This document shows positions 35,151 to 52,528 of a stretch of 56,429 nucleotides of DNA, one piece after another. Under the pieces are notes generated by a model. The model ran no database searches. It was not told the origin of the DNA and was given only the letters and a program-made list of their open reading frames with translations. The stretch comes from a virus (lineage: Duplodnaviria > Caudoviricetes): IMG/VR virus record IMGVR_UViG_3300032288_000938, positions 1-56,429 of that record, one strand, 5' to 3'. The position numbers and the translations under genes are program-made. Position 1 is the first letter of the stretch, and every line of letters starts with the position of its first letter.

Positions 35151-37526
35151 TTATTGGCCTGCTGGAACTAGCGAACGGGTTGCGGGGTCGTATCTGGTTC
35201 CGGCTGAGCTAATTGTACCACCGAGACCAGCAAGGCTCCTATACATGGCGGCAAGCTGACGCATCTCAGCCAAGGACTCCGGTGTGGCACCTTCCGCCAT
35301 GGCCTTAACAATCTCCGCATCAAGCTTGTTTGCCTCTTCGAAATATTTCTCCTTGCTGATTGCACCAGCCATCGCTGCCTTCTGAGCATCAATCGCAGCC
35401 TGATAACGGAGTTTGGCAATATCGCCTGCCCCTTCAAACGGGGCCATGCGCTGCCTCATTTGAAGTTCGCGAATCTTGTCACGAGCGGCTTGGTCCTGCT
35501 CCTCACGGGCAGAAAACGCCTGCTGTAAGCCACCCCGGAATCCTTCGCCAAGCGGGCCACCCGTGGCAATCATCCCAATCCCAAGCTGGCGAAGAAGGAA
35601 AGGAAGGCCACCAGCCTCTTGCTGACGGGCAAGCATTTCATCCTCTTGCTGTTTGTACTCAGCAGCAAGATCCGTGTCGCGCTTTGTTAAGTACGCAATG
35701 TACTCATCCATAGCGGAAGGTCGCGCGGCCAAGCGAGCAGCCTCTTCTCTCTGGCTGATTTCGCGAGCGCGCCTCATGCGCTCACCGACATCCAGATCAT
35801 ATGGGCGGCTAGGCAATTCGCCATCTTCTGCGTAGTAACCCATCGGACCACGGGGGCCAGTCCTAGAGCCTGCGGGGGCCAGTATCACTCCCGCTTGTCC
35901 ATTGGTTCCCTCAGTGGGGCGAAGTTGCTCAAGTTGCCGCCTGCGCTCTTCAACTACAGAAGGGGGCAGACCCAAAGAGCGGAAGCCTTCCGCCTCGCTC
36001 TCAAGACGACGAAGCTCCTCTTCGCGGCGGATCTGTTCCATCTGCTCGGGCGTCGGGCCACGGCCAACCGCAGGGAATGCACGAACAGGCCCATCAGATC
36101 CGCCAGCCATGCGAACGGCACCGCCTTCTGCCATGTACTGCTGGCGAAGCGTCCTATACCGAGCAAGAATATCATCAACGGACTGACCACCAATATTCTG
36201 GACAAGCCTCGGGTCGCCGCGCTGCATCGGGGGAGGTTGAAGTGGTTCTTGCTTCTCTTGCCCCCTAGCAAACAGAGAAGAGCCAAGCTCACGCATTCCC
36301 TTCTTTGCGTCTGGGCTTCCTAGTGCGCCTGCGAGCAAAGATCCAATACCGCGCTCTTGAGGCTCGGGCATGACCCCGCCAGAGAGGATACCAAATTCGC
36401 GATCTGCGGGGTTCATAATATTCATAGCAACACTCGGTTCTGATTGAGGAATGTCGGGTTTATATGAGTTTAGGGGTGACGCGGGGACGTTTGGTTCAGT
36501 TTGGGGACCATCCATGTCCTGAGCGGTAACGGCAGCAGGAGTAATGACGGGTTCAGGCTGGGCAACACCCATCTTCCGGTTGCTCCAGTTTACCACATCA
36601 GCCGCTGTCATTTTTTTAAGAAATGGATTGGCCTTTATAACTTCTTCGCTAAGGACGCGTGCGGCGGGGGCATTAGGGTCTGCACCAAGAATTTTCTTGG
36701 CACCCCGCCCACCGAGGAAATGAGCAAGATAAAGATTGCCTTCTGATGGCTCATAACCGGCAGAACTCAAAACAGCTGCATTGTCTCTCTTGTACCAGTC
36801 GATTGCGTCTTTTGACATTTCAGGATCGAACTTCAGCCGAAGAGCTTCCCTCTCCCCAACGCGGTCTACGAGACCGGGGTGCCTTTCTTTTAGATACCGA
36901 AGCCATGTGGAGTCAATGAACTGGCCAAGACCAGCGGCGCTGGACCGTGGATTCTTGGCCATCGGGTCAAAGCCGCTCTCGACCCCGACCAACTTATTTA
37001 CGAAAGATCCATCCGCAAGACCGATTATGCCGCCATCGGCATACCCATTTGGCTGCTCATAATAAGATGGGGCGTTTGGCCCATCCTGCTGCCCACCATC
37101 AAACTGAGGCTGCGGCATGGGGATAGACGGGTTCTGGATGCTGATATTGTTGTTTGTTACTGGGGGAGATGCCTGCGGGGTTGTGTTCGGAGTGAACATA
37201 TTAGGCGCTCTGTTATCCATTCCGAACTGCATAGGCGGCTTAGGCGGCTGTGGGGTAAAACCACGTACACCAGCGTTAGCCATGGATTGAGCGGGGGAGA
37301 TGAAGCCGCCGTTAGCAAATGCCTGCGGCGCTGTCGGGGTTCCAATAATATCCTGAACAACCGTCGTTTGCGGAGCGGCAGCAGCCGACTCGCGTATCTT
37401 GTCACGGCGAACAACCTCAGACAGGACAAGGTATTGCGGCACAGTACCCGTTGGCTGAGAAAGCTCCTGCTTCAACCTGTCGTCGGGCAGGCCACGGAGC
37501 ATGTCTTGAAGCTGTACTACGTTCAT
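35151..37526 (-). CDS. Internal virion/ejection protein with lytic transglycosylase domain
   Basis: VESG.DP.AKNP.SSA.GLGQFI.STW, LYLAHFLG; repeated A-x-GG motifs. Confidence 0.8.
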   Translation of the reverse strand: MNVVQLQDMLRGLPDDRLKQELSQPTGTVPQYLVLSEVVRRDKIRESAAAAPQTTVVQDIIGTPTAPQAFANGGFISPAQSMANAGVRGFTPQPPKPPMQFGMDNRAPNMFTPNTTPQASPPVTNNNISIQNPSIPMPQPQFDGGQQDGPNAPSYYEQPNGYADGGIIGLADGSFVNKLVGVESGFDPMAKNPRSSAAGLGQFIDSTWLRYLKERHPGLVDRVGEREALRLKFDPEMSKDAIDWYKRDNAAVLSSAGYEPSEGNLYLAHFLGGRGAKKILGADPNAPAARVLSEEVIKANPFLKKMTAADVVNWSNRKMGVAQPEPVITPAAVTAQDMDGPQTEPNVPASPLNSYKPDIPQSEPSVAMNIMNPADREFGILSGGVMPEPQERGIGSLLAGALGSPDAKKGMRELGSSLFARGQEKQEPLQPPPMQRGDPRLVQNIGGQSVDDILARYRTLRQQYMAEGGAVRMAGGSDGPVRAFPAVGRGPTPEQMEQIRREEELRRLESEAEGFRSLGLPPSVVEERRRQLEQLRPTEGTNGQAGVILAPAGSRTGPRGPMGYYAEDGELPSRPYDLDVGERMRRAREISQREEAARLAARPSAMDEYIAYLTKRDTDLAAEYKQQEDEMLARQQEAGGLPFLLRQLGIGMIATGGPLGEGFRGGLQQAFSAREEQDQAARDKIRELQMRQRMAPFEGAGDIAKLRYQAAIDAQKAAMAGAISKEKYFEEANKLDAEIVKAMAEGATPESLAEMRQLAAMYRSLAGLGGTISSAGTRYDPATRSLVPAGQ

Positions 37527-37528
37527 CT

Positions 37529-38554
37529 TCAGTCGCGCTCCCTCATGATGCGGTCAAGATCCATGACCCCGCCATCCTTGAACCCAAGCATACTGCCAAA
37601 CCAAGGAGACCCAAGGGCATACATACCAAGGCCAGCAATCGTGGAGCCGAAACTGGATGGCTGCTTTTGCGTTGTTTGAGACCCCGCAGGCGCGCCATAA
37701 GCAATGGCTGCATAGTCTGCAAGTTCTTTCTTTGCGATGTCTCTTTGCTCAATAAACTTGCGCAACTCTTCGTCAAGGAGAGCCTGCTGATAAGCCTGTT
37801 GCTGAGATCCGATACCACGGAGTCCCTCAAGTCGCTGAAGCTCCATGGCGCGTTCTTTTTCGCCAAGCTGGCCAAGCTGCTCTGCCGCAGTAAGGCCAAA
37901 CTGGCCACGCTCAAGCGCGGCTTGTTCAGCAAACTGCCGTGATTGCTCTGTGTCAAGCGCCGCTTTACGGGCTGCTTCCTGCTGGCCAATTGCAAGCGCA
38001 CTAGCGCGGTCAAATCCTTCGGCCAGCATCTTGGCCTCAGTGTCTGCGGCAAGCTGGCGATATTCGCGGTTCTGAAGCTCGGACTCAATTGCGCCACGGC
38101 TGCCACCCAAGGCACCGGCTGCGGCCTGACGGGTGCGCAGAGCGGCGGCTTCTTCGCCTTGGCGACGCTGTATACCACCGAGCGCGGCGTCAATAGCCTG
38201 TTGCTGATATGGGTTCAGATATTCGCGGATCTGTTCGCCGGTCAAGCGGTTGGGGTCAAACTGTTGACCTTCAAACCCCGGACGGCCAGATACGGAACCG
38301 GCAGCAGCCCCGGCCATTTCGCCAGCCTCTCCAAGCCTGCCAACACCGGCAGTCAGGTCGCGAATGCCACCAAAGTAACGCTGTGTGTCTGGCGTGAAGC
38401 CAGCAACAGTTTCGCCCTCGTACTGTGGGACCCCTTCCTTGCGCTGCAAATATTGCTGCTTGCCTTGCTGAAGCGCAAACTGAACGTAAGGCTTGAGCAT
38501 TGGATCAAGCTGCTGCGTCGTTGTGGAAGACCCACCGCCCTTGCCGCCACCCAT
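37529..38554 (-). CDS. Putative DNA ejection/pilot protein
   Basis: GGGKGG start, YLNPY, AGALGGSR, Q/A-rich helices. Confidence 0.7.
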   Translation of the reverse strand: MGGGKGGGSSTTTQQLDPMLKPYVQFALQQGKQQYLQRKEGVPQYEGETVAGFTPDTQRYFGGIRDLTAGVGRLGEAGEMAGAAAGSVSGRPGFEGQQFDPNRLTGEQIREYLNPYQQQAIDAALGGIQRRQGEEAAALRTRQAAAGALGGSRGAIESELQNREYRQLAADTEAKMLAEGFDRASALAIGQQEAARKAALDTEQSRQFAEQAALERGQFGLTAAEQLGQLGEKERAMELQRLEGLRGIGSQQQAYQQALLDEELRKFIEQRDIAKKELADYAAIAYGAPAGSQTTQKQPSSFGSTIAGLGMYALGSPWFGSMLGFKDGGVMDLDRIMRERD

Positions 38555-38555
38555 A

Positions 38556-38975
38556 TTATATTTCCTTCTCGAAGATCACGAGGTTTGATTTCCAGCCCCT
38601 TGACTTTAGGATCTTTTCCCAACCCCGCCTGCCAATAAGCTCTAAATTGTTAATTTTGAGATCGCGAGCATAGCTCTCCATAATCTCAAATAGTTCATCC
38701 GCCCATTCATCTAGACGTTCACCGCCAAGATGCTCTCCAGTCAGAGCTGCCCCGGCAGGATATAGCTTTATGCGGATCGTAAAGGCACCAACCAGATTGA
38801 TGGCGGAGCCTTCGTAGGCAACCCAGAGACTCTGGTTCCCTCTCATAAGGTCTTCGTAAACATCTTCCGGTTCAATCTTGTGACTGGAATACTCGAAGGC
38901 TTTAGAGAGGAGGGGAAGTGCCAAGCCCCAATAGTCATCCACCATATCTGGTGGAACGGCGCTAATCTTAATCAA
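38556..38975 (-). CDS. Conserved protein, possible GNAT-like fold
   Basis: LWV, GG.....W, GR.GW motif before ejection genes. Confidence 0.55.
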   Translation of the reverse strand: MIKISAVPPDMVDDYWGLALPLLSKAFEYSSHKIEPEDVYEDLMRGNQSLWVAYEGSAINLVGAFTIRIKLYPAGAALTGEHLGGERLDEWADELFEIMESYARDLKINNLELIGRRGWEKILKSRGWKSNLVIFEKEI

Positions 38976-39481
38976 GCAGGCATAACCTTGTCGTGGTTTA
39001 TTTCGCCATTATCGCGAATGCGCTTTGTGGCTTCACCTTTGACGCGAGAAACCATACCATCAAGGACCTTCGCGCCTGCTTCGCTAGATCCATCGCCCAG
39101 CGCAGATACCACACGCGCAGGGACAACATACTCGCCGTCGGATAGCAAAACCTTGCCTCGGTTGTCAATTGTGCCTGCGATCAGGTCATCAACACCGCCA
39201 CCGGGGCCACGAATCATTCCGCCCTTATCCATTGCATACGCCATCTGCGGGGTTTCGCCCGGAGGGATTGGGGGTAAGTTCATAATGCCTCCCCCATCTG
39301 CAAAATTATATGTCGGATAATTTGCCAAGCCCGGCAGGACTGGCGCGCGTCCAATGGGCATACCCGTAACAGATGTTGGCATAGCCATTCCGCCGCCACC
39401 GGACTGCTGTCCGCCGCCCAAAAGGCTACGGATCCCGCCCATGACGAGAGATGAAAGCATACCTGTGACAAGTGGGATCAT
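38972..39481 (-). CDS. Conserved virion-module protein with GPG..D.I.A...LSDGEYV domain
   Basis: GGMIRGPGGGVDDLIAG...LSDGEYVVPA.VVS.LGDGSSEAGA. Confidence 0.7.
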   Translation of the reverse strand: MIPLVTGMLSSLVMGGIRSLLGGGQQSGGGGMAMPTSVTGMPIGRAPVLPGLANYPTYNFADGGGIMNLPPIPPGETPQMAYAMDKGGMIRGPGGGVDDLIAGTIDNRGKVLLSDGEYVVPARVVSALGDGSSEAGAKVLDGMVSRVKGEATKRIRDNGEINHDKVMPA

Positions 39482-39744
39482 GTTACAATCTTAAGTGTAC
39501 CGCCGTCAGACCACACATCTCCTGATTTCAGGCCGGTGGCGGACGTTGGGATGTTGACGATATTTAGGCCAGATTTGGCTTTGCTGTTTACACCGGCTAC
39601 GGGACCGCATGTAATTGGTCCGACGCTCTGGAACTGATTAAAGATCGTTTCAAGCTGCCGGATAAGCAGATTCATATGCTGCTGAGAATACTCTGGGGGC
39701 GGAAGCGGTAATGCGCCTCTCGCAACGCCGGGTGTAGTTGTCAT
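39478..39744 (-). CDS. Small virion protein
   Basis: LP.PP.EY, PTSA.GL..GDVW. Confidence 0.6.
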   Translation of the reverse strand: MTTTPGVARGALPLPPPEYSQQHMNLLIRQLETIFNQFQSVGPITCGPVAGVNSKAKSGLNIVNIPTSATGLKSGDVWSDGGTLKIVT

Positions 39745-41906
39745 CTGCGGCCATCCAATCTGATGTCAAAACGGGGTGTTCCGAGACGCCAAGCCACACC
39801 CACTTCGTCGCTAGACACCCTTAGTATAACAGATCTACCCCTGATTCTGGTAAACAACTGTTCGGTAAAGCTATTTACCGAATAGTTGTAGCTGACCGGG
39901 TTGCTGTCTGCCGCACCCTTTACGGACCCCGGATACATCTGCGGTTTAATAGCAAAGTCCACAGACCTATTCGGGCTGTAGTCGCCAGTATTACGGAAAG
40001 AAATATCCGGGATAATACGGGATACGAACGCGATCTTGTCGCCATCTTCTATCTCAACGGGGCTGGATTCAATGTAGGCCACAATTGGACTGGGCGGGTT
40101 TGTAGAGCCGTCGTCTGTCCCGACCTCATGATAATAAGTGTAGTTATCAGAGCTTGTCGCGAGAGGGTTCGCACCAAATCCGCGATCTGCCCAAGTCGTT
40201 CGTGACATAGTCCCATAATACCACGCCTTCTCTGCGTAGTTATAGGTGACGTAGCTATCGTTCTCGTCCGAGTTGGCTGATGGGTAGAACCATGTCACCT
40301 CATTGTTTGAACTATTTATGCCAGCGTAAATCTTGTACCGCTGTTCAAAGTTCAAATTCAAAAACACCTTTTCGCGGACCGTGCATGGCATTCGGTTCAC
40401 GGAGCCGTCGTAATAATAAAAGTTGTCGCTGCCCATCCAAAAGGATGTGTTTACGGCAGTCGCTACCGTATTGGGGCCAATAATATCAATGCCACTGGAA
40501 ACCAGTGTTGCAGTGAATACATATGTCCCACCTTGATACTGAAGCGAATACAAAGCAGAATCCGTCCACACGAGAACTTCCTGACGGGTCTGCTCAGCGG
40601 TCATGATGAATGAGCCATTAGACAAGCGCAAGGACCCCGCGTTCTCTGCGGTATCTGCCTCGTCCCAATTAAGATAACTTCGATCCGTTGACCAGCGAAT
40701 GAGCATTTTGTCTTGTGCGCCGCCGCCAAATGGGTCTGCCCCAAAAGCAATCGTATGCTCGCCAATGTCAGACACAAGAACCTTAGAGGCTATGGTTGGG
40801 CAGTCGGTAGCGCCAACTATGTCCACAATATTCTTTGCACGCTGAGTCGGGGTATTCTCCACCCATACATAAATACCGCCATCGCGCGGGTTCATAATCA
40901 GGTCTTCGCCAAAATTGTCAAGTGACCAAAGACGAAGCTGAAGCTGTAAGCTTGATTCGGTCGCGGCTTGTCCCCAGCCGGTAGCAGTGCCGCCATTTGC
41001 AGTGGAAATGTAAGTCAGCATCGTTGCAGCTTCGCTGCTTGTGCCGTTTCCGCTTGCAGTCTTTTGGGTGGTAACGGTTATGGTATTCGTACCAACGGAC
41101 ACAATTGTAAATGCGCGGTTAATGAATTTCACATCAATACCGCCAATGGCCGTTGTCAGGCCCGAAATTACAACAGAATCACCGGCAAGAAGCCCATGAG
41201 AATTGTATGTTATGACAATATCGGCGCTGCCGCTGGTGGCGGCGATGTCGCCTGATGTAACGGTCAAAGAAGAGGTAGGTGCGTTTGCGCCGCCAAATGG
41301 GCCTGCGCCCCAGCCTGTGCCGACAACCAGAGAGTCAAGACCAATGTTAATTTGGTACGCAGCGACTACACTGGCACCGCCACCAGATGCAGAAGAGGTC
41401 GCCGTTGTCGCGACAATGATTTCGTAATTATTGGCATCAATAACATGAGTGACCTCATGCTCCTTATTAAGGTCTGCCGCTGGGACCCCGCCTACAGTTG
41501 TAGCCCCAGAAAAGGTTACATAATCGCCCTCAATACATCCATGTGCGGTGTCCGTGACCTTTACAGTCTTGGATCCGTTTGTTGTCGTAAATGGATTGTT
41601 GTTGATTGTAGAGGATGCTCGGAGTGGAGTAACATCTTGATACTCAGAAAGTGAACCACCATTGATGTACACCTTCTTGCTGGTCGCAACAGATGTATAA
41701 ATTGTCCCGTTCAACGACGCCCAGCGCAAAATATCGCGAGCTGTTCCAAGGAACGGGGTGTTCAAAAACCTTTGCCATCCGCCAATCTTTTCCGGCAGAC
41801 CGTTACGGAAACGCACCTTGTCAGAGTCATACCAACCTCCAGTGTTGGTGTACTCTGTCAAGTCACGGTTGATGCCGGGATTGAACTTTAGCTTGGATAG
41901 AGGCAT
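39741..41906 (-). CDS. Tail/head-closure protein (P22 gp10 / nozzle-like)
   Basis: PGINR, RFR.G.PEKIGGW, WSLDNFGEDL, IRWS, WRLG..R.D...DGRR. Confidence 0.75.
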   Translation of the reverse strand: MPLSKLKFNPGINRDLTEYTNTGGWYDSDKVRFRNGLPEKIGGWQRFLNTPFLGTARDILRWASLNGTIYTSVATSKKVYINGGSLSEYQDVTPLRASSTINNNPFTTTNGSKTVKVTDTAHGCIEGDYVTFSGATTVGGVPAADLNKEHEVTHVIDANNYEIIVATTATSSASGGGASVVAAYQINIGLDSLVVGTGWGAGPFGGANAPTSSLTVTSGDIAATSGSADIVITYNSHGLLAGDSVVISGLTTAIGGIDVKFINRAFTIVSVGTNTITVTTQKTASGNGTSSEAATMLTYISTANGGTATGWGQAATESSLQLQLRLWSLDNFGEDLIMNPRDGGIYVWVENTPTQRAKNIVDIVGATDCPTIASKVLVSDIGEHTIAFGADPFGGGAQDKMLIRWSTDRSYLNWDEADTAENAGSLRLSNGSFIMTAEQTRQEVLVWTDSALYSLQYQGGTYVFTATLVSSGIDIIGPNTVATAVNTSFWMGSDNFYYYDGSVNRMPCTVREKVFLNLNFEQRYKIYAGINSSNNEVTWFYPSANSDENDSYVTYNYAEKAWYYGTMSRTTWADRGFGANPLATSSDNYTYYHEVGTDDGSTNPPSPIVAYIESSPVEIEDGDKIAFVSRIIPDISFRNTGDYSPNRSVDFAIKPQMYPGSVKGAADSNPVSYNYSVNSFTEQLFTRIRGRSVILRVSSDEVGVAWRLGTPRFDIRLDGRR

Positions 41907-41915
41907 TGCATAGCC

Positions 41916-42275
41916 TTACGAAAGCTGCTTGAGCTTGTAGATGGTCTTTAGGTAAATTGCCGTAATTTCGTCAACGATATTTTCCAAAGCCGGTATTTCG
42001 CTTGCAATATGCTCGCGATGTTCATTAATCCAGTTTGCTTCGTCAGACAGGTGAGAGAGAATATCCTTCACTGGTTTGACTGCCGGAATCTCAAGTGGAT
42101 CAACTACTTTACCAGCGGCACCCATATACGCTTCAACAAGCTTGTCAATGCCGTCGATGATGTCATCATAAAATGCACCAAGGGCTTCATGCTCCGCGAA
42201 ACTTTTTGTACGCCAATGGGCAAGATGAGCGCAGTTGCGGGTGCAGAAAACCTTCTGGATAAGCTCGTTCAGCAT
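41916..42275 (-). CDS. Ferritin/Dps-like protein
   Basis: H..HW.T.SFA.H.AL..FY, D..VE.Y.G, YKL..L. Confidence 0.8.
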   Translation of the reverse strand: MLNELIQKVFCTRNCAHLAHWRTKSFAEHEALGAFYDDIIDGIDKLVEAYMGAAGKVVDPLEIPAVKPVKDILSHLSDEANWINEHREHIASEIPALENIVDEITAIYLKTIYKLKQLS

Positions 42276-42284
42276 TTTTCCAAC

Positions 42285-43712: not shown

Positions 43713-43720
43713 TTGCGTTC

Positions 43721-44695: not shown

Positions 44696-44833
44696 TTAGG
44701 TGGGCTTCACGGGCCACACCGGGTTAAATGGGTCTGAGGTGTTCTCAGGGAGATCACGCAGGGCTTAACGATATGAAGCCCATTCAGCCTGCTTCTCGGG
44801 GCCATAATAGGCCCAGCGGTATAGTAATTGGCA
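44696..44833 (-). pseudogene. Remnant of tail-fibre assembly chaperone gene
   Basis: ...KQAEWASYR*ALRDLPENTSDPFNPVWPVKPT; in-frame TAA at 44765-44767 where Gln is usual; no start. Confidence 0.75.
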
Positions 44834-44846
44834 CTAGATAAGCTCC

Positions 44847-46460
44847 TCAAATTAAGCTTGCAAAGTATGTTGTTATAATAGCGCGTCCGTTTGCGCCAGC
44901 ACCAGAGTTTCCGGTTTCCGAGCCGCCGCCTCCACCACCCGGAGCGGTTCCAGCCGTTGCATTGTTGGCATCAAAAGCTCCAGCACCACCAGCACCGCCA
45001 TAAAAAGAAACACCGCCAGCACCGGGGCCGGGTGAGCTATCAACCGCACCAGCGCCACCGCCTCCGCCTCCATAAACTGAAGAACCACCAGCGCCGTTAG
45101 TATCGCTTGAATTATTTGTTGAACCTCCACCACCACCACCACCAAAGGAGCCATCAGTACCATTTTCGCCGTTCACGCCACTAATGCTGGTTCCGTCACC
45201 TCCATTACCCGCAAGTCCAGCACCATTTCCGGCAGTTCTGCTAGTAGAACTAACACCAGCAGAAAATGGTCCTCCGCCACCACCGCCACCACCAGCCACT
45301 CCATCTACTCCTCCGCCACCACCGCCATATGCATAAACCAATGTTCCAAAGGATGTCGTACCACCTGCGTTTCCATCTGCGTTGGCAGTTACAGACGCCC
45401 CACCCGATCCGATTGTAACTGCGGTATCTGAAAGAGAGGAGTAATTAAGGATTACCTCATTGTATCCACCACCACCACCACCTCCTCCCGGCACTGAATT
45501 AGCCCCTTTGGCACCACTGCCTCCGCCACCCCAAAGCTGGACCTTGACATATTGGAAATTACCAGAAGGTTTTGTCCAAGTTCCACTGGAGTTGAATGTT
45601 TGCACATCAATAGTTGTTGACCAAGATGGAGCAGCACTTGCACCAGAAGACAAAATCACAGAACCAGAAGAACCATAATTAGCGCCGCCGATACCCCACT
45701 GACCAGCATTGCCAATACGGAATCTTTCGGTAACGGTAGATGCGCCGTCTGCCGTTGTGTAAAACGCAATTCTACCCGGCATGTCATTTGTGCCGGGGGT
45801 TCCATCAATCGCCACCTGAATGCGGGCGGTCGGTATAAGAGCCGAATTGTCGGAGCCATAGAAGCGGAAGTCGCCTACGGTATCTCCAGACTGGACAACA
45901 GAATAGGTTCCGTAAGATCCGCCACGGGATTTGCCAAACCAGTTTACCTGACCTGTGGCCGTGTTGCCCCAGTCAACCCCGCCATACCCACCTTCAGCAA
46001 GAACGTCCGTGTGAGACTGGAACTGTGTTTGCACAGTTTCAAGAGTAAGCGTCTGCCCATAACCAGCGATAGCGTGACCAGCGGCAGTAATAACAAATGG
46101 AGTCGAGTCAGGGCTTGTTTCGTCTTCGACACGAAGGGCGTCTGCCGTGCCAAGCTGCGTAATGCGAAGAGCGGGGTTTGAATTATCGGTTGTTTCGATA
46201 ACCTGAGCCGCCGTGAAGGTATTGATTGAGTTAACCTGCGGTGTCGTACTGCTTACAGCAAGCGACCCCGATGATAGGTTTAACCCCGTCCCAACAGAGA
46301 TTTCCTCGGCAGAACCAGTTCCAGACGATGTCCGCCCGATCAAGCGGGCGGTGGCAAGCGTGAGATCGTGTTCAGCGTTCCAGTTGGAAGGCCGAACAAG
46401 ACTGGTATCCCCTCCATCGGCGACTGCCGACTGGAAGTTATGTTTAAGGGAAATCGCCAT
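44847..46460 (-). CDS. Tail fibre with glycine-rich C-terminal domain
   Basis: VRPSNWNA.H N-terminus, DMPGR..F.TT.DG, F.SSGTWTKP followed by GGGG repeats. Confidence 0.8.
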   Translation of the reverse strand: MAISLKHNFQSAVADGGDTSLVRPSNWNAEHDLTLATARLIGRTSSGTGSAEEISVGTGLNLSSGSLAVSSTTPQVNSINTFTAAQVIETTDNSNPALRITQLGTADALRVEDETSPDSTPFVITAAGHAIAGYGQTLTLETVQTQFQSHTDVLAEGGYGGVDWGNTATGQVNWFGKSRGGSYGTYSVVQSGDTVGDFRFYGSDNSALIPTARIQVAIDGTPGTNDMPGRIAFYTTADGASTVTERFRIGNAGQWGIGGANYGSSGSVILSSGASAAPSWSTTIDVQTFNSSGTWTKPSGNFQYVKVQLWGGGGSGAKGANSVPGGGGGGGGYNEVILNYSSLSDTAVTIGSGGASVTANADGNAGGTTSFGTLVYAYGGGGGGVDGVAGGGGGGGGPFSAGVSSTSRTAGNGAGLAGNGGDGTSISGVNGENGTDGSFGGGGGGGSTNNSSDTNGAGGSSVYGGGGGGAGAVDSSPGPGAGGVSFYGGAGGAGAFDANNATAGTAPGGGGGGSETGNSGAGANGRAIITTYFASLI

Positions 46461-47056
46461 TACTGCGCCACTCTGTTGCTCTTACGAATGTTCTCTTCTG
46501 CCGTCAGTATTTGCAAGTTTGACGGTACATGGAGGCCGGATACGGTTTTCCCGCGAAGGGGAATAATGTGGTCAACGTGATGCGGGATCCCAGTGGAGTC
46601 TGTAAGCTCCTGTGCGCGACGATAGATGTTCTCTATCTTAACACGGGAGCCAAAACAGACGGGAACCCAAGGCGGAACTGCGCGCGTTTTGGCCAGCTTG
46701 TAACGCTTCTTGGCCGCATTGGATTTGCCACGATTTTTACGGGCGTATTCCTTGGCAGCTTCGAGGCGCTTTTCGCGGTGTTTAGCGTAAGCCTCGCGGT
46801 TCTGTTGGCGGCTTTTTTCCGGGTCAGCCCAGTATGCTTCTTTTTGAAAGTTTGGGTTTTTGGAGACCCGTCGATTGTAGTACTTTTTTTGTCTCTGCCT
46901 TGACTTTCCCACGTCTTGAAAATATCTTTTCGATGACGCTGCCTTATGGCAGTCCTTGCAGTTACTTCGCAATCCATCAGAAGCAGTCTTGTGTCCATAG
47001 AACTGGTCACAAGTTTTCTCAGCGTTGCATGTAATGCAGATTTTCGTCTGCATCAC
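46460..47056 (-). CDS. HNH homing-type endonuclease
   Basis: K.C..C...K...F...C..C N-terminus; [19 protein letters not shown]...EN..KSN. Confidence 0.85.
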
Positions 47057-47484: not shown

Positions 47485-47768
47485 TATAGTCTCCTAATCA
47501 GGTCAGCCACATCATTGTGGCCTGCTTCTTTCAGTTTTGCGGCCAGAGTTGTCCGGTCGCTGTTGATGGCCTGCTTCATGTAGTGAACAATCGCGGGCCG
47601 CATCGCCTCGCGGAATGCAATCGCCTGATCCTTGATGGCAGGTGGTGCAGTATCCGCGATGTGAATAATTTTATTAAGCAGACGCTCCGTCCACTCTTCT
47701 GCCGTAAAACCACGGTTCTGCGTGGTTTCAACGTACACGGGGCCAAGCCCCATCATGGTTTCAAACAT
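47484..47768 (-). CDS. Conserved hypothetical protein
   Basis: TT.NRG...EE, I.DQA.AF, SDRTT. Confidence 0.7.
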   Translation of the reverse strand: MFETMMGLGPVYVETTQNRGFTAEEWTERLLNKIIHIADTAPPAIKDQAIAFREAMRPAIVHYMKQAINSDRTTLAAKLKEAGHNDVADLIRRL

Positions 47769-48400
47769 CAGTTAGGCTTTACTCTGGTCTCGCCGTTGCG
47801 GTAAGTGTCAGACCGATCCCTGCCTTCGCCCAATGTCTTAAGCTGAGTGAGCGCATCAATGTAGCGGTTGGCATACACTTCCATGAGTTCTGGATCACCC
47901 TTGAGAACCGTATAACCCTCAACCAAGCAACCGTACAGAAGCGCATTCTCAGCATTATCGCCTAGCCAGCTTGTACCCGTGTCTACGATGGATGCTGGCT
48001 CATAGTAGTAGTGAAGCTCAAAGTCGTAACCCGATGTCGGGGTTGGACCCAAAAGAAACGTATTGTCGTCGAACAGGGCGTAGTATTTTGGAACCCCGGT
48101 CGTGGCCGCTGTTGGATATGCCTCACGAATAAAAGCAACATCCTTCGGCAGAAGATAAGACTGCTCTCCGCTGACAATCACAGCGAGAGAGTAAGCAGAG
48201 AGGAAATCAGACGGGGTTGCAAGATACTTGACCCCGCCCGTCGCGTTCCCTGTTACGTTCTTGCGAAAGTTAGGAAGCTGCACCGAGCGGACAATACGCT
48301 CTTCGGCCTGCCGGATGATTGTGTCCGTCATGCCTCCGAGGCCATCGTCGTCTGTCTGGAGATAGGCCCAGATCTGGTTTTTAAGCTCGGTGTAGTTCAT
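47768..48400 (-). CDS. Putative head-tail adaptor protein
   Basis: MNY.EL...I, QAE.RI, G.PKYYA, GPTP, LLYG.L.E. Confidence 0.75.
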   Translation of the reverse strand: MNYTELKNQIWAYLQTDDDGLGGMTDTIIRQAEERIVRSVQLPNFRKNVTGNATGGVKYLATPSDFLSAYSLAVIVSGEQSYLLPKDVAFIREAYPTAATTGVPKYYALFDDNTFLLGPTPTSGYDFELHYYYEPASIVDTGTSWLGDNAENALLYGCLVEGYTVLKGDPELMEVYANRYIDALTQLKTLGEGRDRSDTYRNGETRVKPN

Positions 48401-48403
48401 TTA

Positions 48404-48580
48404 TCAGCCGTTCTTGGAGAAGGTCTTACCCTTTGTCGCGGCACCAAAACCACGCATGGTCTTGTCTTTCGCGATCTTGGGCATCAAGCCAGTATACACA
48501 CCCATGGACATGCCGCCTTGGATTGTGGCAACATTCTCTTCTTTCTGAGAACGGGTCTTCTTCTTCACATCGTTTGCCAT
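48404..48580 (-). CDS. Small basic protein
   Basis: MANDVK...MRGFGAATKGKTF. Confidence 0.65.
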   Translation of the reverse strand: MANDVKKKTRSQKEENVATIQGGMSMGVYTGLMPKIAKDKTMRGFGAATKGKTFSKNG

Positions 48581-48581
48581 G

Positions 48582-49121
48582 TTACTTACCCTTAACCTTG
48601 CCGCCAGACTTGAGGTTGGCAGCGGGGATGCGCTTGGCCGACTTGTGGGCAGCAACCTTCTCAAGGCGACCAGACCCAGACCCAGCACCAGCGGTCATCT
48701 TGACAGCACCGCCCTTGGCATACTTAGATACCTTGCCGCCATTTTTGCGGTACAAAGCAGGCATCCCGCCGATAGCTTCCATGGCCCCGCGAACACCTTG
48801 CGGAACTGTCTGGCTGCCGCCTTGTCCGCCCTTGCCGCTGCCGATAGACGGCTTAATTGGCATACCCGGACGGGTTGGGAACCCCGGAAGGGTCTTCACC
48901 ATGTCACGGCCATCACGGCGCATATCGCGGCGCATATCGCGGCGCATCCCGCGATCCATTTCAGCGGGGCCGCCCATAGCCATCTTTGGAACTTTGCCGC
49001 CGGGTGTGGCGTTAGAGCCAGTCCCCTTGCGAGCAATACCGCCGCCCTTGAGGGCCATACCAACGCCCTTGCGGGCCAAACCACCGCCACGCATGGCGGA
49101 CTTACCTGTCTTACCCTTCAT
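48582..49121 (-). CDS. Basic Gly-rich protein with repeated x-x-GG motifs
   Basis: Seven GG motifs; MRRD tandem; AAGGAG RBS. Confidence 0.7.
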   Translation of the reverse strand: MKGKTGKSAMRGGGLARKGVGMALKGGGIARKGTGSNATPGGKVPKMAMGGPAEMDRGMRRDMRRDMRRDGRDMVKTLPGFPTRPGMPIKPSIGSGKGGQGGSQTVPQGVRGAMEAIGGMPALYRKNGGKVSKYAKGGAVKMTAGAGSGSGRLEKVAAHKSAKRIPAANLKSGGKVKGK

Positions 49122-49131
49122 GGGGGACTCC

Positions 49132-49512
49132 TTAGATGTTCGGGTCGTACTGCCCGTTGTTGAGAACGATTACTGTACCGATCTGTCCCTGACAGAATAC
49201 AGCGTTATTTCCTACAATACCACCAACCGAGTTATTCTGCATAAGCGCGACAACATCTTGCCACCCAAACAAAGCCTCGCTGACAACCTTAGCGGTGTCT
49301 GGGCGGGGATCCCGCAAAGCCTGCGGATCGTTGACTGGGAACATGCCCAAGAACAACTGCGGATGGTCTTTATCAAGGCATTCATTGCAAACCTTTAGGT
49401 TTGTATTCCTGCCCTTGATTGGCTGGAAGTAAAGCTTAGCCAAGTCGGCCCTGAACCCGCAACGGTCGCAGAACCCGAATGCCCGCCTACCCTTGGCATA
49501 TGGGACACTCAT
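49132..49512 (-). CDS. Conserved zinc-binding virion-module protein
   Basis: CDRCGF...VC.EC.D.DHPQ...DPQALR.PRPD. Confidence 0.75.
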   Translation of the reverse strand: MSVPYAKGRRAFGFCDRCGFRADLAKLYFQPIKGRNTNLKVCNECLDKDHPQLFLGMFPVNDPQALRDPRPDTAKVVSEALFGWQDVVALMQNNSVGGIVGNNAVFCQGQIGTVIVLNNGQYDPNI

Positions 49513-50213
49513 TAGTAGCCCCCGAAGCCTACATACGGGAGGAAGCGATCTGGCGCGCGGTCTCGGTCTTCAGACGCTGCAAGCGTGAACTGCTCTTCGT
49601 ACAGGCCCTTTAGCAACTGAATGCGATCAGCCGCTTCGGGGTTTTTAAGCGCAATGTAATAAGCCAGACCGGAGACAAGGGCTGGCAGGAAGCGGACAGG
49701 GATGTCAGCGTTATTCGCTGCGCTGGCTCCGGTGTCCTCAATACGTCTCAGATACCAGTATACCAGCGTGTAGGTTGTGCTGCTATCTGGGACCGGCCAA
49801 ACCGTCACCGTCGGTGAGATCTGCCGATTGACGTAAATTTGGAGGGGCCTGCCCTGCGTGGACTTGGTCGGGATTGCGGCATAGTCGGAAACCGAAATGC
49901 GCTGCATCGTAATGTCGGTGTTTACACCAGAGTTGTTGGTGCGGATTACATGCTCGATCATGTCAATCATGTCCGCAGGAACCCCGTTGGCGACGGTATA
50001 TGTTGCTTGTCCGGGGACAAGGGTTATAGTGCCGGTTGCAATAGTCCAAAGGTTCAACCCCATGTTGGACCATTCGGCACACAGCAGATTGAGACTGCGG
50101 CGGGCAGTCTTCATGTCGTAGCCTGAGCGCAACTCAAGACCGGCGCGCTCAAAGGCTTCTTCGACAATCTCTGCGATGTCAAGGTTGAATGTAGCTGTGC
50201 CGCTGGTTGTCAT
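49512..50213 (-). CDS. Putative tail tubular/adaptor protein
   Basis: EEAFERAG, TARRSLNL...W.N.G.NLW, GRP.Q, WPVPD, GLAYY. Confidence 0.75.
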   Translation of the reverse strand: MTTSGTATFNLDIAEIVEEAFERAGLELRSGYDMKTARRSLNLLCAEWSNMGLNLWTIATGTITLVPGQATYTVANGVPADMIDMIEHVIRTNNSGVNTDITMQRISVSDYAAIPTKSTQGRPLQIYVNRQISPTVTVWPVPDSSTTYTLVYWYLRRIEDTGASAANNADIPVRFLPALVSGLAYYIALKNPEAADRIQLLKGLYEEQFTLAASEDRDRAPDRFLPYVGFGGY

Positions 50214-50296
50214 GTATCTACCTATTTATAACCGATTATACCATGAATGCCGTATACAGGGCTATACATAGGTATATAAGGGTAAACCCGTTATAA

Positions 50297-50362
50297 GTGT
50301 GCATCCCCGGCTGATGACCACACTGGGTTCATATACAGCCCGCCTACCCAAACGATGCACTT
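50297..50362 (-). other. Compact pseudoknot-like element
   Basis: GTGCATC/GATGCAC outer stem with interleaved TGGGT/ACCCA and GGCTG/CAGCC. Confidence 0.45.
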
Positions 50363-50372
50363 CCCGACTCTA

Positions 50373-50516
50373 CTAGTACTTACCGCGATCACCCTTCATA
50401 GGGCTTTTGGGACCTAGGGACTTGCTATGGCGTCTTGCCTTTGGCAGGCTGCGACGCTTGCTGCGGGATTTTGATAGTTTAAGAGATGCCCCAATATTGA
50501 TCTTACTGGCAGCCAT
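50373..50516 (-). CDS. 47-aa highly basic peptide (not in ORF track)
   Basis: MAASKINIGASLKLSKSRSKRRSLPKARRHSK...; TAATG coupling with upstream gene. Confidence 0.6.
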   Translation of the reverse strand: MAASKINIGASLKLSKSRSKRRSLPKARRHSKSLGPKSPMKGDRGKY

Positions 50517-52006
50517 TAGACACACCGCCCCCTAGTCTTGCCGCGAGATGCAATGCCGTCTGCCTTGGCAACGCGGCCACCACTCTTCATTGTTTTGGGT
50601 TTAGCACCACGGCGTAGGTGCTTTTTCCCGCGCCTACGGATTGGCTCCTTATCTTCTCCACCGCCCGGCCTGTCCCTAAATGGCCCACCGGAAGAAGAAA
50701 AATTGGATTGTGAAGCACGATCACCGGCAGCAACAACACTTGGAGAAGTGGTTGGCTTCTGAGGCCCCGCAGGGCCACTATACACAGGACCTTCGGTCGG
50801 GCCAGACATGCCCGGCAGTCGGCTTTGATCCTTGTCTAAGAATTGACTTCCGAACTCAGGACCAACGGTTTCACCAGACATTCCCGGCAACCGGCTTTGG
50901 TCCTTGATAGAGCCAAAGGATCGGCTTGAATACGGGGAGGCAGGGTTAAATGAGCCAACCTTCGGGCCGAGGCTTGTCACCCCTGCCCCCTTGGGGACGC
51001 TTACGTTAAAATTGTACCCAGCAATTTTGGCTGGATAAGAGTTGTACGCAGACTCGTCAAAGCCGCTTGGGGTTGGGTATCTCAAGCCAGCGAGTCCACT
51101 CCCAATCAACACGCTGCCTTCAGGGAGTTGCTTGGCAAATTTAGCGGCTTGTTGAGCGGTCATTGGCTTCTGCGAACGCGCGAGCAGGCTTTGACCAATA
51201 TCGGTCTCCGCAAATGGGGTGAACTGCTTGCTCTGAGTGAAGGTAACGCTGCCCGGAACAACCGACTGTTGGTCAAGATAGCTAGGGCGGAATGAAGGAG
51301 CGGCAGGGCTTGCCTGCGTCGGAGTTGGAGAAAATGGCCTTGACGGCATAACCGCAGGCCGCTGCGGGGTTGGAGTCACAGGACGAGCAGGCATTGACCT
51401 ACGCGGCACCGGCTCGCCAGCCGGGGCCATGTAGGGATTTTCCCAATCAGGCGTCATTTCAAGCCGGTCTGCAATCTTGCCCTTCGGGGTAAGTGACTGG
51501 ATAGAAGTCCCCCTAATAGAAGGATCTCTCAAGTCTTGCTGCGCCAAGTCATTATAAACACCAGCCAGCATCTGAGCGCGGCCACTATTGATCCCAGCCC
51601 CCGTCATTGCGCGAGCGGGGTCAGAACCGAGCCGTGCCAATTGCCCAGCGGCAGATCCTCCGCTTGGACCAGACGGCCTCGTTCCACCAAACCCGCCTTC
51701 GCGAGTACTTCCTGCGAGGCCACGCGGTCCCTCACCGCCACCGCCCATCTGGCCTGAGCCACCGGGCCTCATGCCCCCGTCCCGCGTTGAACCGGCAAGA
51801 CCACCACCACCGGAGGAACCACCGGGCCTTGACCCCGCCCCTGCAAACCCACCTTCACGGGTAGAACCGCCTAGCCCGCTAGACGAACGCGCGCTCTCTG
51901 GCTGACCACCCATGAACCCGCCAAGGGACATCCTCTTGACGCCATCGGAGCGGGGGGTTGTTGCTCTCGTAAAACCCTTGCGGGCCTTTCCATCACCACG
52001 GGCCAT
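50516..52006 (-). CDS. Low-complexity G/P/S-rich protein with internal repeats
   Basis: GSTR[ED]GG x3, KDQSRLPGMSG x2; C-terminal DGIASRGKTRGR. Confidence 0.7.
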   Translation of the reverse strand: MARGDGKARKGFTRATTPRSDGVKRMSLGGFMGGQPESARSSSGLGGSTREGGFAGAGSRPGGSSGGGGLAGSTRDGGMRPGGSGQMGGGGEGPRGLAGSTREGGFGGTRPSGPSGGSAAGQLARLGSDPARAMTGAGINSGRAQMLAGVYNDLAQQDLRDPSIRGTSIQSLTPKGKIADRLEMTPDWENPYMAPAGEPVPRRSMPARPVTPTPQRPAVMPSRPFSPTPTQASPAAPSFRPSYLDQQSVVPGSVTFTQSKQFTPFAETDIGQSLLARSQKPMTAQQAAKFAKQLPEGSVLIGSGLAGLRYPTPSGFDESAYNSYPAKIAGYNFNVSVPKGAGVTSLGPKVGSFNPASPYSSRSFGSIKDQSRLPGMSGETVGPEFGSQFLDKDQSRLPGMSGPTEGPVYSGPAGPQKPTTSPSVVAAGDRASQSNFSSSGGPFRDRPGGGEDKEPIRRRGKKHLRRGAKPKTMKSGGRVAKADGIASRGKTRGRCV

Positions 52007-52016
52007 TGTGGCCTCC

Positions 52017-52247
52017 TTAACAGATTCTGCCTTTGGTTTTTACGCGAGAAAGACCATCGCCGCGCACTGCGCCGCCGCTCTTCATACGGGGCTGAAATTT
52101 TTGCATGATTGCGGGTGGGATATTCATACCAGCCTTCTCAAACTTACCAATCATCTTCCCAGCCCATTTACGTGCGCCGCCGTTACCGCTTGGCATACCT
52201 TTTGATTTTGCTAGGCCGCTTAAGTAACTAAATGGATTACCAGCCAT
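52017..52247 (-). CDS. Small basic protein
   Basis: MKSGGAVRGDG...KTKGRIC. Confidence 0.7.
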   Translation of the reverse strand: MAGNPFSYLSGLAKSKGMPSGNGGARKWAGKMIGKFEKAGMNIPPAIMQKFQPRMKSGGAVRGDGLSRVKTKGRIC

Positions 52248-52528
52248 TAGCAGATCCTTCCTTTAGTCTTACCGCGAACTGCGGCACCATCAACCTTACC
52301 GCCATGCTTAAAATCAGAAGGCTTAAAGCCTTCCAGCATAATTTCGTCGTTGGCATCGCCCTGACTGACTACACCGCTTTTTACGTCTTCCACCGTGATC
52401 TTGCGGCGCTTCGGCGCAGGCATCTTGGGGCGGGGCCTCGGGAGAGGCTGCTCCTTCTTCTTGGCATTCTCTTCCATAGCAGCAATCAAGGACTGCATAC
52501 CAAGCTTATCTTGTTCTGAAATGCCCAT
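52247..52528 (-). CDS. Small basic protein
   Basis: FKHGGKVDGAAVRGKTKGRIC. Confidence 0.7.
   Translation of the reverse strand: MGISEQDKLGMQSLIAAMEENAKKKEQPLPRPRPKMPAPKRRKITVEDVKSGVVSQGDANDEIMLEGFKPSDFKHGGKVDGAAVRGKTKGRIC

Follow-up and report, generated by a model that had tools for sequence, protein, structure and literature searches.

Why do seven late proteins of a single podophage share a seven-residue element built around Gly-Gly, and is one of them, a stand-alone protein of 169 aa, the factor that recognizes it? The window, i.e., the whole stretch of DNA analyzed (56,429 nucleotides), represents the complete genome (56.4 kb) of an uncultured podophage belonging to the HTVC023P/MinM2 type. 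It is a short-tailed phage with a water source. Searches of the genome with Pfam and PHROGs found no tail tube or tape measure match, with SU10-type adaptors and a nozzle-type protein present. A preliminary description had proposed that the element is a packaging or cleavage tag and that the 169-aa protein is its reader or protease.

A Gly-Gly heptad in the window and in related loci

All 15 strings listed in the preliminary description are present in the translations of the minus-strand open reading frames (ORFs) it named, and 12 of them, with window coordinates re-derived below, fit a seven-residue pattern with the consensus [FYM]-[AK]-x-G-G-x-[VIL]. The other three, all from the 179-aa protein (MRGGGL, LKGGGI and MAMGGP), fall outside [MFYL]xxGGx[IVLM].

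28548..35132, minus strand: polyvalent virion protein of 2194 aa at the end of the ejection module (Pfam LPD38, E 2.7e-35)
32883-33212, minus strand: zincin-like HExxH...EEAxAE cassette of the 2194-aa protein, kept in 6 other giant proteins
35151..37526, minus strand: 791-aa protein (PHROG transglycosylase phrog_4067, E 1.1e-24, residues 178-320)
36114-36134, minus strand: heptad MAEGGAV of the 791-aa protein, after the SLT region
37023-37043, minus strand: heptad YADGGII of the 791-aa protein, in the linker
37299-37319, minus strand: heptad FANGGFI of the 791-aa protein, in the linker
37529..38554, minus strand: 341-aa ejection-protein homologue (PHROG phrog_4287 "DNA ejection protein", E 7.5e-17)
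37562-37582, minus strand: heptad FKDGGVM of the 341-aa protein, 10 residues before the C-terminus and after a glycine-zipper-like stretch
38972..39481, minus strand: 169-aa protein (translation), with a Gly-rich N-terminus, two heptads and a C-terminal GE[FY]V domain
38975-39232, minus strand: GE[FY]V domain of the 169-aa protein (residues 84-169), a conserved C-terminal module of ~85 residues
39212-39232, minus strand: heptad MDKGGMI of the 169-aa protein
39284-39304, minus strand: heptad FADGGGI of the 169-aa protein
39741..41906, minus strand: 721-aa nozzle-type virion protein (PHROG phrog_3287, E 3.8e-57)
48582..49121, minus strand: Gly-rich 179-aa protein of pI 11.7 (translation), its gene between two adaptor genes
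48594-48614, minus strand: heptad LKSGGKV of the 179-aa protein
48702-48722, minus strand: heptad YAKGGAV of the 179-aa protein
49512..50213, minus strand: first SU10-type adaptor gene (Pfam SU10_adaptor, E 3.1e-16)
50516..52006, minus strand: 496-aa basic low-complexity protein (translation)
50519-50590, minus strand: C-terminal tail of the 496-aa protein, heptad MKSGGRV followed by a basic tail
51911-51931, minus strand: heptad MSLGGFM of the 496-aa protein
52017..52247, minus strand: 76-aa basic protein (translation), with terminal heptad MKSGGAV and basic tail at 52020-52085
52247..52528, minus strand: 93-aa basic protein (translation), with terminal heptad FKHGGKV and basic tail at 52250-52312

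We assessed enrichment by permuting residues inside each protein 2000 times, using ORFs hand-picked from the ORF list with short overlapping ORFs left out. The 40 late ORFs (11,488 aa) contain 17 matches vs. 4.05 expected, with at least 17 reached in 0/2000 shuffles, compared with 2 matches vs. 1.14 expected (p = 0.31) in 45 early ORFs (6,149 aa). A second test was conditioned on Gly-Gly sites, which takes out the effect of glycine-richness. The seven flagged proteins have 64 such sites and carry both flanks of the pattern at 12 of them vs. 1.9 expected (binomial p = 3.7e-7, for proteins selected post hoc), while the remaining 33 late proteins have 137 sites and 5 matches vs. 3.7 expected (p = 0.32). 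As the latter are at expectation, we attribute these five extra matches (two in terminase and one each in the nozzle, tail fibre and 2194-aa proteins) to chance; the single matches of the nozzle and 2194-aa proteins are each at chance level, with no enrichment in the latter by shuffling.

Independent replication came from 160 related metagenomic loci, 80 fetched by the GE[FY]V domain and 80 by the adaptor, in which the heptad is limited to two places: the ejection module, made up of the three or four genes that follow the nozzle gene, and the small basic genes directly upstream of the first adaptor gene. In the window, the heptad-bearing ejection module is correspondingly bordered upstream by the nozzle gene, and the small basic heptad-bearing genes form a block bordered downstream by the first adaptor gene. 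Across the domain-fetched loci, the domain ORFs contain 60 A-type heptads (2.2 expected), and 750 other same-strand ORFs contain 67 (6.0 expected). The heptad is found at positions -1 to +4 of the domain gene in 4/76, 34/80, 5/79, 29/74, 14/59 and 3/24 ORFs, respectively, and in 0/429 ORFs at positions -2 to -12; a nozzle homologue is present in 73/80 related loci, with an A-type heptad in 0/73. Adaptor-fetched loci carry it at ORFs -2, -3 and -4 in 41/69, 40/65 and 24/61 cases, and 0/80 adaptor homologues do so.

The shared heptad of the flagged late proteins is thus real, on the strength of both the conditioned enrichment and this replication. One could still regard it as a chance product of glycine-rich low-complexity sequence, given that the proteins bearing it contain 10-23% Gly and that the pattern was set after the matches had been seen. 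We give this next to no credence, as it is refuted by the persistence of the enrichment at Gly-Gly sites, by the counts in loci unused for defining the pattern, and by invariant glycines in the 791-aa family, where no column except G165 and G166 is invariant in a 17-sequence alignment of hypervariable, ~20% identical homologues. Ala also occupies heptad position 2 in 101/150 matches, although the pattern did not require it. These comparisons support the heptad as a selected element common to a special set of late proteins and not a by-product of composition. Given its restriction to certain gene positions in relatives, the invariant glycines and the unrequired Ala, a fair reading is that it behaves like a functional tag, one for virion cargo loading or processing.

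Within the ejection module, the acidic 169-, 341- and 791-aa proteins are encoded directly after the nozzle gene. The heptads of the 791-aa protein bracket its SLT region, as had been described, at residues 70 and 162 before and 465 after a domain at about residues 175-320 (Pfam SLT E 9e-4, under the gathering score). AF2 models place a helical N-terminal domain at residues 1-50 (pLDDT 88-96) and a disordered linker at residues 63-173 (pLDDT 28-43). Homologues of the 341-aa protein occur in 58/80 related loci, and some of them terminate in a heptad followed by a short helix of GLxxLALxxM type. In several long ejection-protein forms (e.g., L024, L042 and L053), heptads are placed where the ejection-protein homology ends or close to that point.

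Near the adaptors, the 179-aa protein has no family match in Pfam, PHROGs or a further sequence-family search. The 496-, 76- and 93-aa proteins, previously described as otherwise unrelated like the rest, prove to have their entire 21-24-residue C-terminal tail in common, with a Cys at or beside the end in all three, and relatives carry tails of the same type on ORFs lying upstream of their adaptor gene. Within the small proteins, conservation is highest in this heptad-started tail (14/21 to 14/24 identical positions vs. 12-43% for the bodies). Compared with orthologues in related locus L088, for instance, the 76-aa protein is identical at 14/22 tail vs. 19/164 body positions and the 93-aa protein, which has 4 close homologues only, at 14/21 vs. 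32/74. Four or more mutually unrelated modules have the heptad in front of them (the GE[FY]V domain, the basic tail and two further basic domains), and in many proteins 3-5 copies are spaced by a few residues. The cultured relative CRP-901 shares the head and nozzle genes but has no GE[FY]V domain and about one heptad, so the heptad is not indispensable for this virion type.

The 169-aa protein and its C-terminal domain

The N-terminus of the 169-aa protein is weakly hydrophobic and Gly-rich (hydropathy peak 1.39 at residues 4-22), and its C-terminal half belongs to an unannotated domain family with 7,357 cluster representatives at E<=1e-3 and 1,057 at 1e-10. Proteins bearing the domain vary greatly in length (81 to 1124 aa among the matches listed), and nearly all have it at the very C-terminus; these are hypervariable proteins that themselves bear the heptad. 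In 142/143 pattern-positive representatives, the distance of GE[FY]V from the C-terminus is 51-55 residues, with 7/150 representatives falling outside the search pattern. An alignment of 40 sequences reveals a G-x-G-x-G..D loop, GE[FY]V and a G-x-G-S motif, with six Gly, one Asp and one Glu invariant (G92, G94, G96, D99, E117, G129, G131 and G136). AF2 models residues 80-169 at pLDDT 80-95, as a beta hairpin at residues 99-114 plus helices.

The claim that this protein is the reader or protease of the motif is not upheld. It carries two heptads of its own, its conserved residues are Gly plus one Asp and one Glu, and it has no match in Pfam, NCBIfam or PDB sequences, nothing beyond tape-measure families in PHROGs, no significant match in fold searches, a result that on its own decides little, and no peptidase signature by sequence families or as a catalytic Ser/Cys/His or metal motif. 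The same module also closes thousands of hypervariable proteins with the heptad in cis. The 169-aa protein is probably another heptad-carrying cargo protein instead, and its C-terminal domain is a minimal stand-alone form of this widespread podophage module.

Docking, cleavage and other readings

We tentatively favor a reading in which the heptad stays uncut and serves as a docking strand, bringing cargo into the particle and putting it in order. The seven heptad proteins, i.e., the acidic 169-, 341- and 791-aa ejection-module proteins and the very basic 179-, 496-, 76- and 93-aa set adjoining the adaptors, probably travel with the DNA and are ejected from the virion, as their gene positions and family names suggest. 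In their disordered, Gly/Pro-rich stretches, the heptad would be a short linear motif for docking. At assembly, it would fold as a short strand onto a common putative partner within the particle, with the portal, the adaptor/nozzle lumen or another cargo protein as candidates. Such docking would load otherwise unrelated proteins and set their exit order without cutting, and, if tape-measure C-termini are a guide, the GE[FY]V domain would probably anchor the protein carrying it close to the tail exit. The disordered linkers in the AF2 models and the four or more unrelated modules behind the heptad provide a setting that fits a motif folding on binding.

The location of heptads at module joints and ends, at the ends of long ejection-protein forms, and ahead of short basic tails fits cutting as well as docking. 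Under a proteolytic reading, cargo and basic proteins would be cut at or beside Gly-Gly, during maturation or after ejection, either by a protease from the host or by the zincin-like cassette in the 2194-aa protein, freeing modules and short basic tail peptides. Heptads do lie at the borders of the SLT domain, of the GE[FY]V domain (directly before it in 58/145 representatives) and of the 21-24-residue basic tails, as well as at or near the end of ejection-protein homology in L024, L042 and L053, and the HExxH...EEAxAE cassette recurs in six related giants. Lambda gpH, in which two heptad-like strings can be seen by eye around a GEFV, is cut in its glycine-rich C-terminal region, at a site and by an enzyme described as not known (PMC12617516). 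Nevertheless, we consider cleavage unlikely, though a live competitor of docking, as 3-5 heptads a few residues apart, found in many proteins, would be odd for cut sites, and a recognized maturation protease is absent: the previous statement that no prohead protease is recognizable stands for the 40 late ORFs, comprising 8 head and 32 other ORFs, by Pfam and PHROGs, with the cassette to be set beside it. Known peptidase types in these 40 ORFs are a CHAP lysin only, plus this weak zincin lead, which is under the Pfam cut-off (Peptidase_M13, E 0.047) in a protein that otherwise shows weak ART-PolyVal and methyltransferase matches in Pfam. The terminal proteins of HTVC027P, HTVC023P and Caulobacter phage RW moreover have no HExxH, although these phages bear heptads.

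Two further readings were weighed. In a milder version of the reader proposal, the GE[FY]V domain would bind the heptads of other cargo in trans by strand addition, chaining cargo together, much as it may bind its own heptad in cis. The placement of heptads directly before the domain is consistent with this, as are, if they pair, two-residue strand elements assigned by DSSP in the AF2 model at residues 88-89 (the heptad end) and 118-119 (in GEYV), and CRP-901, which is without the domain and nearly without heptads. Domain and heptad genes also adjoin in 80/80 loci, by construction, with heptads at +2 and +3 in 29/74 and 14/59. We find this version highly doubtful, however, since 74/145 domains are preceded by G-x-hydrophobic only, two contigs have the domain with heptad-free ORFs upstream of the adaptor, and the domain always occurs appended to the C-terminus of cargo-like proteins, never as an enzyme-like unit by itself. 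Alternatively, the heptad could act after ejection, as an interfacial hinge by glycine-zipper membrane segments or as a cell-wall contact aiding an envelope channel. It follows a glycine-zipper-like hydrophobic stretch in both the 341-aa protein and lambda gpH, one copy lies immediately before the wall-cutting SLT domain, and 44/150 domain-family representatives have a strongly hydrophobic 19-residue window. A post-ejection role nonetheless seems quite unlikely, as the small basic proteins bear the heptad without a hydrophobic segment (hydropathy maxima 0.11-0.77), and the maxima of the 169- and 341-aa proteins are modest, at 1.39 and 0.98.

Comparison with known systems

The ejection module resembles those of T7 (gp14-16) and P22 (gp7, gp16 and gp20) in forming a block of three to four genes after the tail/nozzle genes, with one member carrying a transglycosylase domain and one very large; no sequence relation to them was seen, and we know of no Gly-Gly heptad common to the T7 or P22 ejection proteins. 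Internal proteins of T4 carry an N-terminal capsid-targeting sequence, removed by the prohead protease at L/I-x-E, and the likeness is that small internal proteins with nothing else in common bear one short peptide that routes them into the head. The heptad, in contrast, is internal or C-terminal and often repeated, and the late ORFs yielded no prohead protease, so we reject a T4-type signal.

The adenovirus protease recognizes (M/L/I)-x-G-G followed by the cut on very basic DNA-bound core proteins, and a precursor releases a short basic Cys-bearing C-terminal peptide. The basic proteins of the window likewise end in short basic tails after Gly-Gly, with a terminal or near-terminal Cys, but their hydrophobic residue is five, not four, before the putative cut. 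Pfam scans found no clan CE protease in the 40 late ORFs and two of the 45 early ORFs (11212-11754 and 14744-15262), leaving the CHAP lysin as the only cysteine protease, and with the register off, an adenain-type site was rejected.

Lambda gpH offers a by-eye likeness in element order at ~residues 684-790, in the cleaved fragment gpHC: a glycine-zipper-like stretch, an [FY]AxGG string, GEFV ~20 residues on, and a second YAxGG-type heptad. This part is not resolved by cryo-EM (PMC12617516). For the earlier remark that the 169-aa protein resembles a tape-measure segment, there is a weak match to PHROG family phrog_3547 (E 4.8e-4 over residues 55-130) and no significant similarity to lambda gpH: hhalign of the domain-family profile found no match in the C-terminal region of gpH, and a core HMM scored 3.5 bits, equalled by 45/2000 shuffles. 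Among 40 family members, 4 match phrog_3547 and 1 matches phrog_7025; a BFVD fold search returned tape measures only at E about 1, and 47 long family members have no tape-measure Pfam domain. Unlike gpH, the protein is short, at 169 aa, and stands alone in a podophage without a tail tube to measure, and we rejected it as a gpH-type tape measure.

The model adopted for docking is cargo protein C1 (gp45) of crAss001. Pfam crAss_CARG1 (PF25725) has no match among 32 late proteins at E<=0.01, an Atlas search gave no more than a lead, at 0.86, to crAss cargo protein 1, and neither a Gly-Gly motif nor cleavage is mentioned for C1 in the available portion of its description (PMC10172136). C1 is mostly unresolved, is thought to be ejected first, forming a channel, and has short ordered segments that dock on the portal wing, tail barrel and muzzle (PMC10172136), a precedent for the docking proposed here.

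Organization of the genome and its late genes

The window is the whole virus record (56,429 bases) and carries an exact direct terminal repeat of 123 bases (window 1-123 and 56307-56429), which fits the record's class of 'complete'. Its major capsid protein (93-1007, minus strand) shares 74% identity with those of Synechococcus phage MinM2 and Planktothrix phage Pag-Yong1, and 63-68% with those of the next closest records, namely phage DSL-LC04, Pelagibacter phages HTVC027P and HTVC023P, and phage 023Pt_psg01. The late genes are all encoded by the minus strand, and their order runs across the record's ends. Terminase, portal (3772-6180), GroES-like protein, probable scaffold and capsid (6189-7688 down to 93-1007) come first, then a lysis block and a run of genes for small basic proteins; the two SU10-type adaptors (47768-48400 and 49512-50213) follow, with fibres and a 721-aa nozzle-type protein (39741-41906) after them, and a block encoding proteins of 169, 139, 341, 791 and 2194 aa closes the order. 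Within this last block, the 341-aa protein is a DNA ejection protein according to PHROGs, the 791-aa protein contains a transglycosylase and the 2194-aa protein is a polyvalent protein; from its position and content, we take the block to be the counterpart of the ejection and internal proteins of T7 and P22.

The 139-aa ORF (window 38556-38975, minus strand), located between the 169-aa and 341-aa genes, has HTVC023P gp80 as a homologue, and the gene at its place in Roseobacter phage CRP-901 is annotated as a GNAT acetyltransferase. A 300-base non-coding gap (window 50214-50515) between the 496-aa gene and the first adaptor gene is the sole sizeable gap of the late region. Other features along the record are:

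7878-7952, minus strand: tRNA-Thr(TGT), between terminase and early genes
8238-8314, minus strand: tRNA-Pro(TGG), between terminase and early genes
16269-17147, plus strand: ArdC-like anti-restriction protein, early region (ArdcN E 4.4e-33, MPTase-PolyVal zincin peptidase E 4.6e-39)
41916-42275, minus strand: DUF5856 gene (PHROG 'starvation-inducible regulator'), between fibre and nozzle genes
46460-47056, minus strand: HNH/endonuclease VII-like gene, among tail genes

A Gly-Gly heptad in the window and its relatives

The preliminary description had listed Gly-Gly strings in seven late proteins (169, 341 and 791 aa from the ejection module, and the small basic proteins of 179, 496, 76 and 93 aa), every one of which is present in the window translations. 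We write the motif as the heptad [FYM]-[AK]-x-G-G-x-[VIL], with an A-type form and a Lys/Arg form. Its suggested enrichment in late over early proteins was borne out by within-protein shuffling (2000 times, 7-residue pattern), which gave 17 matches vs. 4.05 expected in 40 late ORFs, a count reached in 0/2000 shuffles, and 2 vs. 1.14 in 45 early ORFs. Because Gly-Gly abounds in glycine-rich proteins, we made a second count conditioned on GG sites: both flanking residues were found at 12/64 GG sites of the seven flagged proteins (1.9 expected) and at 5/137 in the other 33 late proteins (3.7 expected). The signal is therefore confined to the seven flagged proteins, with the matches in the terminase, nozzle, fibre and 2194-aa proteins attributable to chance. 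The carriers fall into two groups by charge: those of the ejection module are acidic (pI 5.2-5.8), whereas the small proteins are basic (pI 9.7-11.7). A further candidate heptad, WSDGGTL in an 88-aa protein, was rejected, as the 18 best-matching ORFs in related loci keep a different C-terminal pattern without GG.

The heptad also occurs in syntenic proteins of MinM2, HTVC027P, HTVC023P and Caulobacter phage RW. Across 80 metagenomic loci fetched through the C-terminal GE[FY]V domain of the 169-aa protein (domain loci), the A-type form was present 60 times in domain-bearing ORFs (2.2 expected) and 67 times in 750 other same-strand ORFs (6.0 expected), with 0 in 83 opposite-strand ORFs. Counts by gene position are only approximate, since the ORFs of related loci are crude greedy picks, and place the heptad in 4/76, 34/80, 5/79, 29/74, 14/59 and 3/24 loci at -1, 0, +1, +2, +3 and +4 from the domain gene, and in 0/429 ORFs between 2 and 12 genes upstream, where nozzle, fibres and adaptors are encoded; the Lys/Arg form follows the same positional restriction. 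In 80 loci fetched through the first adaptor (adaptor loci), similarly approximate counts give the heptad in 41/69, 40/65 and 24/61 ORFs 2, 3 and 4 genes upstream, and in 0/80 adaptors. With enrichment at GG sites and replication in related loci, the heptad as a product of chance is excluded.

Proteins and domains bearing the heptad

Among the acidic carriers, the 791-aa protein was aligned with 16 homologues (16-23% identity), which left G165 and G166 of YADGGII as the sole invariant columns, within a consensus GIxxLPxxxMxxMAxGGIVxxAxGxxV directly ahead of the enzyme part. In the AF2 model, residues 1-50 form a helical N-terminal domain at high confidence (pLDDT 88-96); residues 63-173, which hold two heptads, are disordered (pLDDT 28-43), and the SLT domain comes next. 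Long forms of the ejection protein were also considered as fusions of the 341-aa and 791-aa proteins, an idea rejected with the N-terminal domain of the latter found in 0/58 ejection homologues.

The basic proteins of 496, 76 and 93 aa have a whole C-terminal tail in common beyond the heptad itself, made up of the heptad, a few residues and an ending of the DG-x-A-x-RGKT+G+ type, with Cys at or next to the end:

50519-50590, 52020-52085 and 52250-52312, minus strand: basic tails of 21-24 residues, starting with the heptad, of three neighbouring genes

In a comparison with the closest locus, whose adaptor is 89% identical, identity is 14/21 to 14/24 in the tails and 12-43% in the bodies; this tail also terminates adaptor-upstream ORFs in roughly 31/65 loci at position -3 and 31/61 at -4. 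A homologue search with the 93-aa protein returned only 4. In adaptor loci, the heptad also stands ahead of other basic modules, at least three in number. The window encodes additional late proteins that are small and very basic (52528-52713 and 54012-54711, minus strand; pI 10.5-11.4) and match DUF6496, DUF6321, phrog_14910 and phrog_17747. The window's own phrog_17747 copy has no heptad; relatives carry one directly ahead of this and other basic modules, and HTVC023P has one fused to DUF6321.

The GE[FY]V domain, which forms the last 85 residues of the 169-aa protein, has 7,357 cluster representatives at E<=1e-3 and 1,057 at 1e-10. Among the 150 listed, the proteins are 81 to 1124 aa long and 113 hold at least one heptad; 142/143 pattern-positive representatives have the GE[FY]V string 51-55 residues before the C-terminus, and directly ahead of the domain there is a heptad in 58/145 and only G-x-hydrophobic in 74/145. 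In 150 heptads taken from variable parts of the family, position 2 is Ala in 101 although the pattern left it free, and the flanks are Gly- and Pro-rich. The domain is rare in cultured phages (8/50,697 records by tblastn). In a co-occurrence check of the domain with heptad-bearing small proteins, nearly all adaptor loci had the heptad, and four of five contigs had the domain, two of them without upstream heptads, the fifth contig being a 30%-complete fragment.

The AF2 model of the 169-aa protein is confident at residues 80-169, a beta hairpin followed by helices. With this model, Foldseek gave no PDB match at E<=0.001, VIA-align wide reached at best Z 4.0 through the helical tail only, and the 13 BFVD matches at E<=1e-3 were without exception uncharacterized proteins from uncultured phages. 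Searches with the protein and 40 relatives found no Pfam, NCBIfam or PDB-sequence match, and 47 long family members gave one DUF in Pfam and nothing else; when the seven flagged proteins and 40 family members were run against Pfam, NCBIfam and PHROGs, only weak tape-measure PHROG matches bore on the domain. An Atlas search returned unnamed viral clusters only, and 69 homologues carried either 'hypothetical protein' or nothing as source name.

Proposed docking, possible processing and known systems

We tentatively favour the heptad as an uncut docking strand, because it is short, invariant and repeated in disordered linkers, sometimes few residues apart, and because it sits on many unrelated modules but only in genes for proteins expected inside the particle. 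The heptad would dock inside the particle as a short strand, its carriers presumably being virion proteins. Roseobacter phage CRP-901 (15096-21935 of its locus) counts against docking: its nozzle, GNAT and ejection-type genes are kept, while the domain is missing and the heptad occurs only about once. It is also a natural comparison strain.

The main rival, cutting at the heptad, is in our judgement unlikely. It fits the short basic tails and the siting of heptads where modules meet, and it has a candidate enzyme, although this is a weak lead:

32883-33212, minus strand: zincin-like cassette in the 2194-aa ORF (28548-35132; residues about 640-750 of the protein), with HExxH starting the pair at residue 675 and a conserved EEAxAE some 65 residues further on

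Both elements are kept in homologous stretches of six giant proteins from other loci (phmmer E 8e-9 to 6e-4), and besides the CHAP lysin the cassette is the sole candidate peptidase among the late genes; however, HExxH was not found in the terminal proteins of HTVC027P, HTVC023P and RW, and in Pfam the cassette reaches only Peptidase_M13, below cut-off (E 0.047). That the heptad acts instead after ejection, at the membrane, seems rather improbable. The preliminary description had made the heptad a packaging or cleavage tag with the 169-aa protein as its reader or protease. The protease part finds no support, with no peptidase mark in family searches or among the invariant residues (six Gly, D99 and E117), and the milder idea of the domain as a reader seems improbable; the 169-aa protein looks like one more cargo protein, a minimal one. 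A long shot is a phage counterpart of adenovirus-style maturation, with heptads cut in the DNA-filled particle or on ejection by a not-yet-recognised enzyme, which might be a protease of the host or reside in the giant virion protein as its zincin-like cassette. If true, such cutting would free enzyme modules from their anchors, release Cys-bearing basic tail peptides of about 20 residues from DNA-bound basic proteins, and also account for the unexplained cut of lambda gpH.

To our knowledge, how the proteins injected ahead of the DNA by short-tailed phages are loaded, ordered and released is known for few model phages only, and the heptad offers a simple, testable handle on these steps. In a very large group of aquatic podophages, most of them uncultured and some of them relatives of abundant pelagiphages, it is a seven-residue tag common to the ejection proteins and small basic proteins, and it is linked to the unannotated C-terminal domain of 7,357 cluster representatives, which lacks a Pfam model. 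Literature searches, supplements aside, found no description of the heptad or the domain and nothing useful on MinM2 or Pag-Yong1; the HTVC023P-type genome paper (PMC9599517) contains none of the terms 'internal virion', 'ejection', 'tape measure' and 'structural protein'.

Of the proposed comparison with tape-measure proteins, a by-eye resemblance stands: in lambda gpH, a hydrophobic glycine-zipper stretch is followed in turn by an FAxGG string, by GEFV and by a YAxGG heptad. Membership does not, as profile comparison of the domain family with lambda gpH gave nothing in that region and a core HMM scored 3.5 bits, equalled in 45/2000 shuffles. Through this by-eye resemblance, which is not a significant similarity, the heptad may bear on where and how lambda gpH is cut; for JBD30, excerpts of the published account (PMC11445458) mention only a predicted Arg-C site. 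We class the heptad among the cargo tags and docking segments of phage internal proteins, a kind already known. The solved precedent for the docking that we propose here is the crAss001 cargo protein, of which, according to passages of PMC10172136, short ordered segments of an otherwise invisible chain lie on the portal, tail barrel and muzzle.
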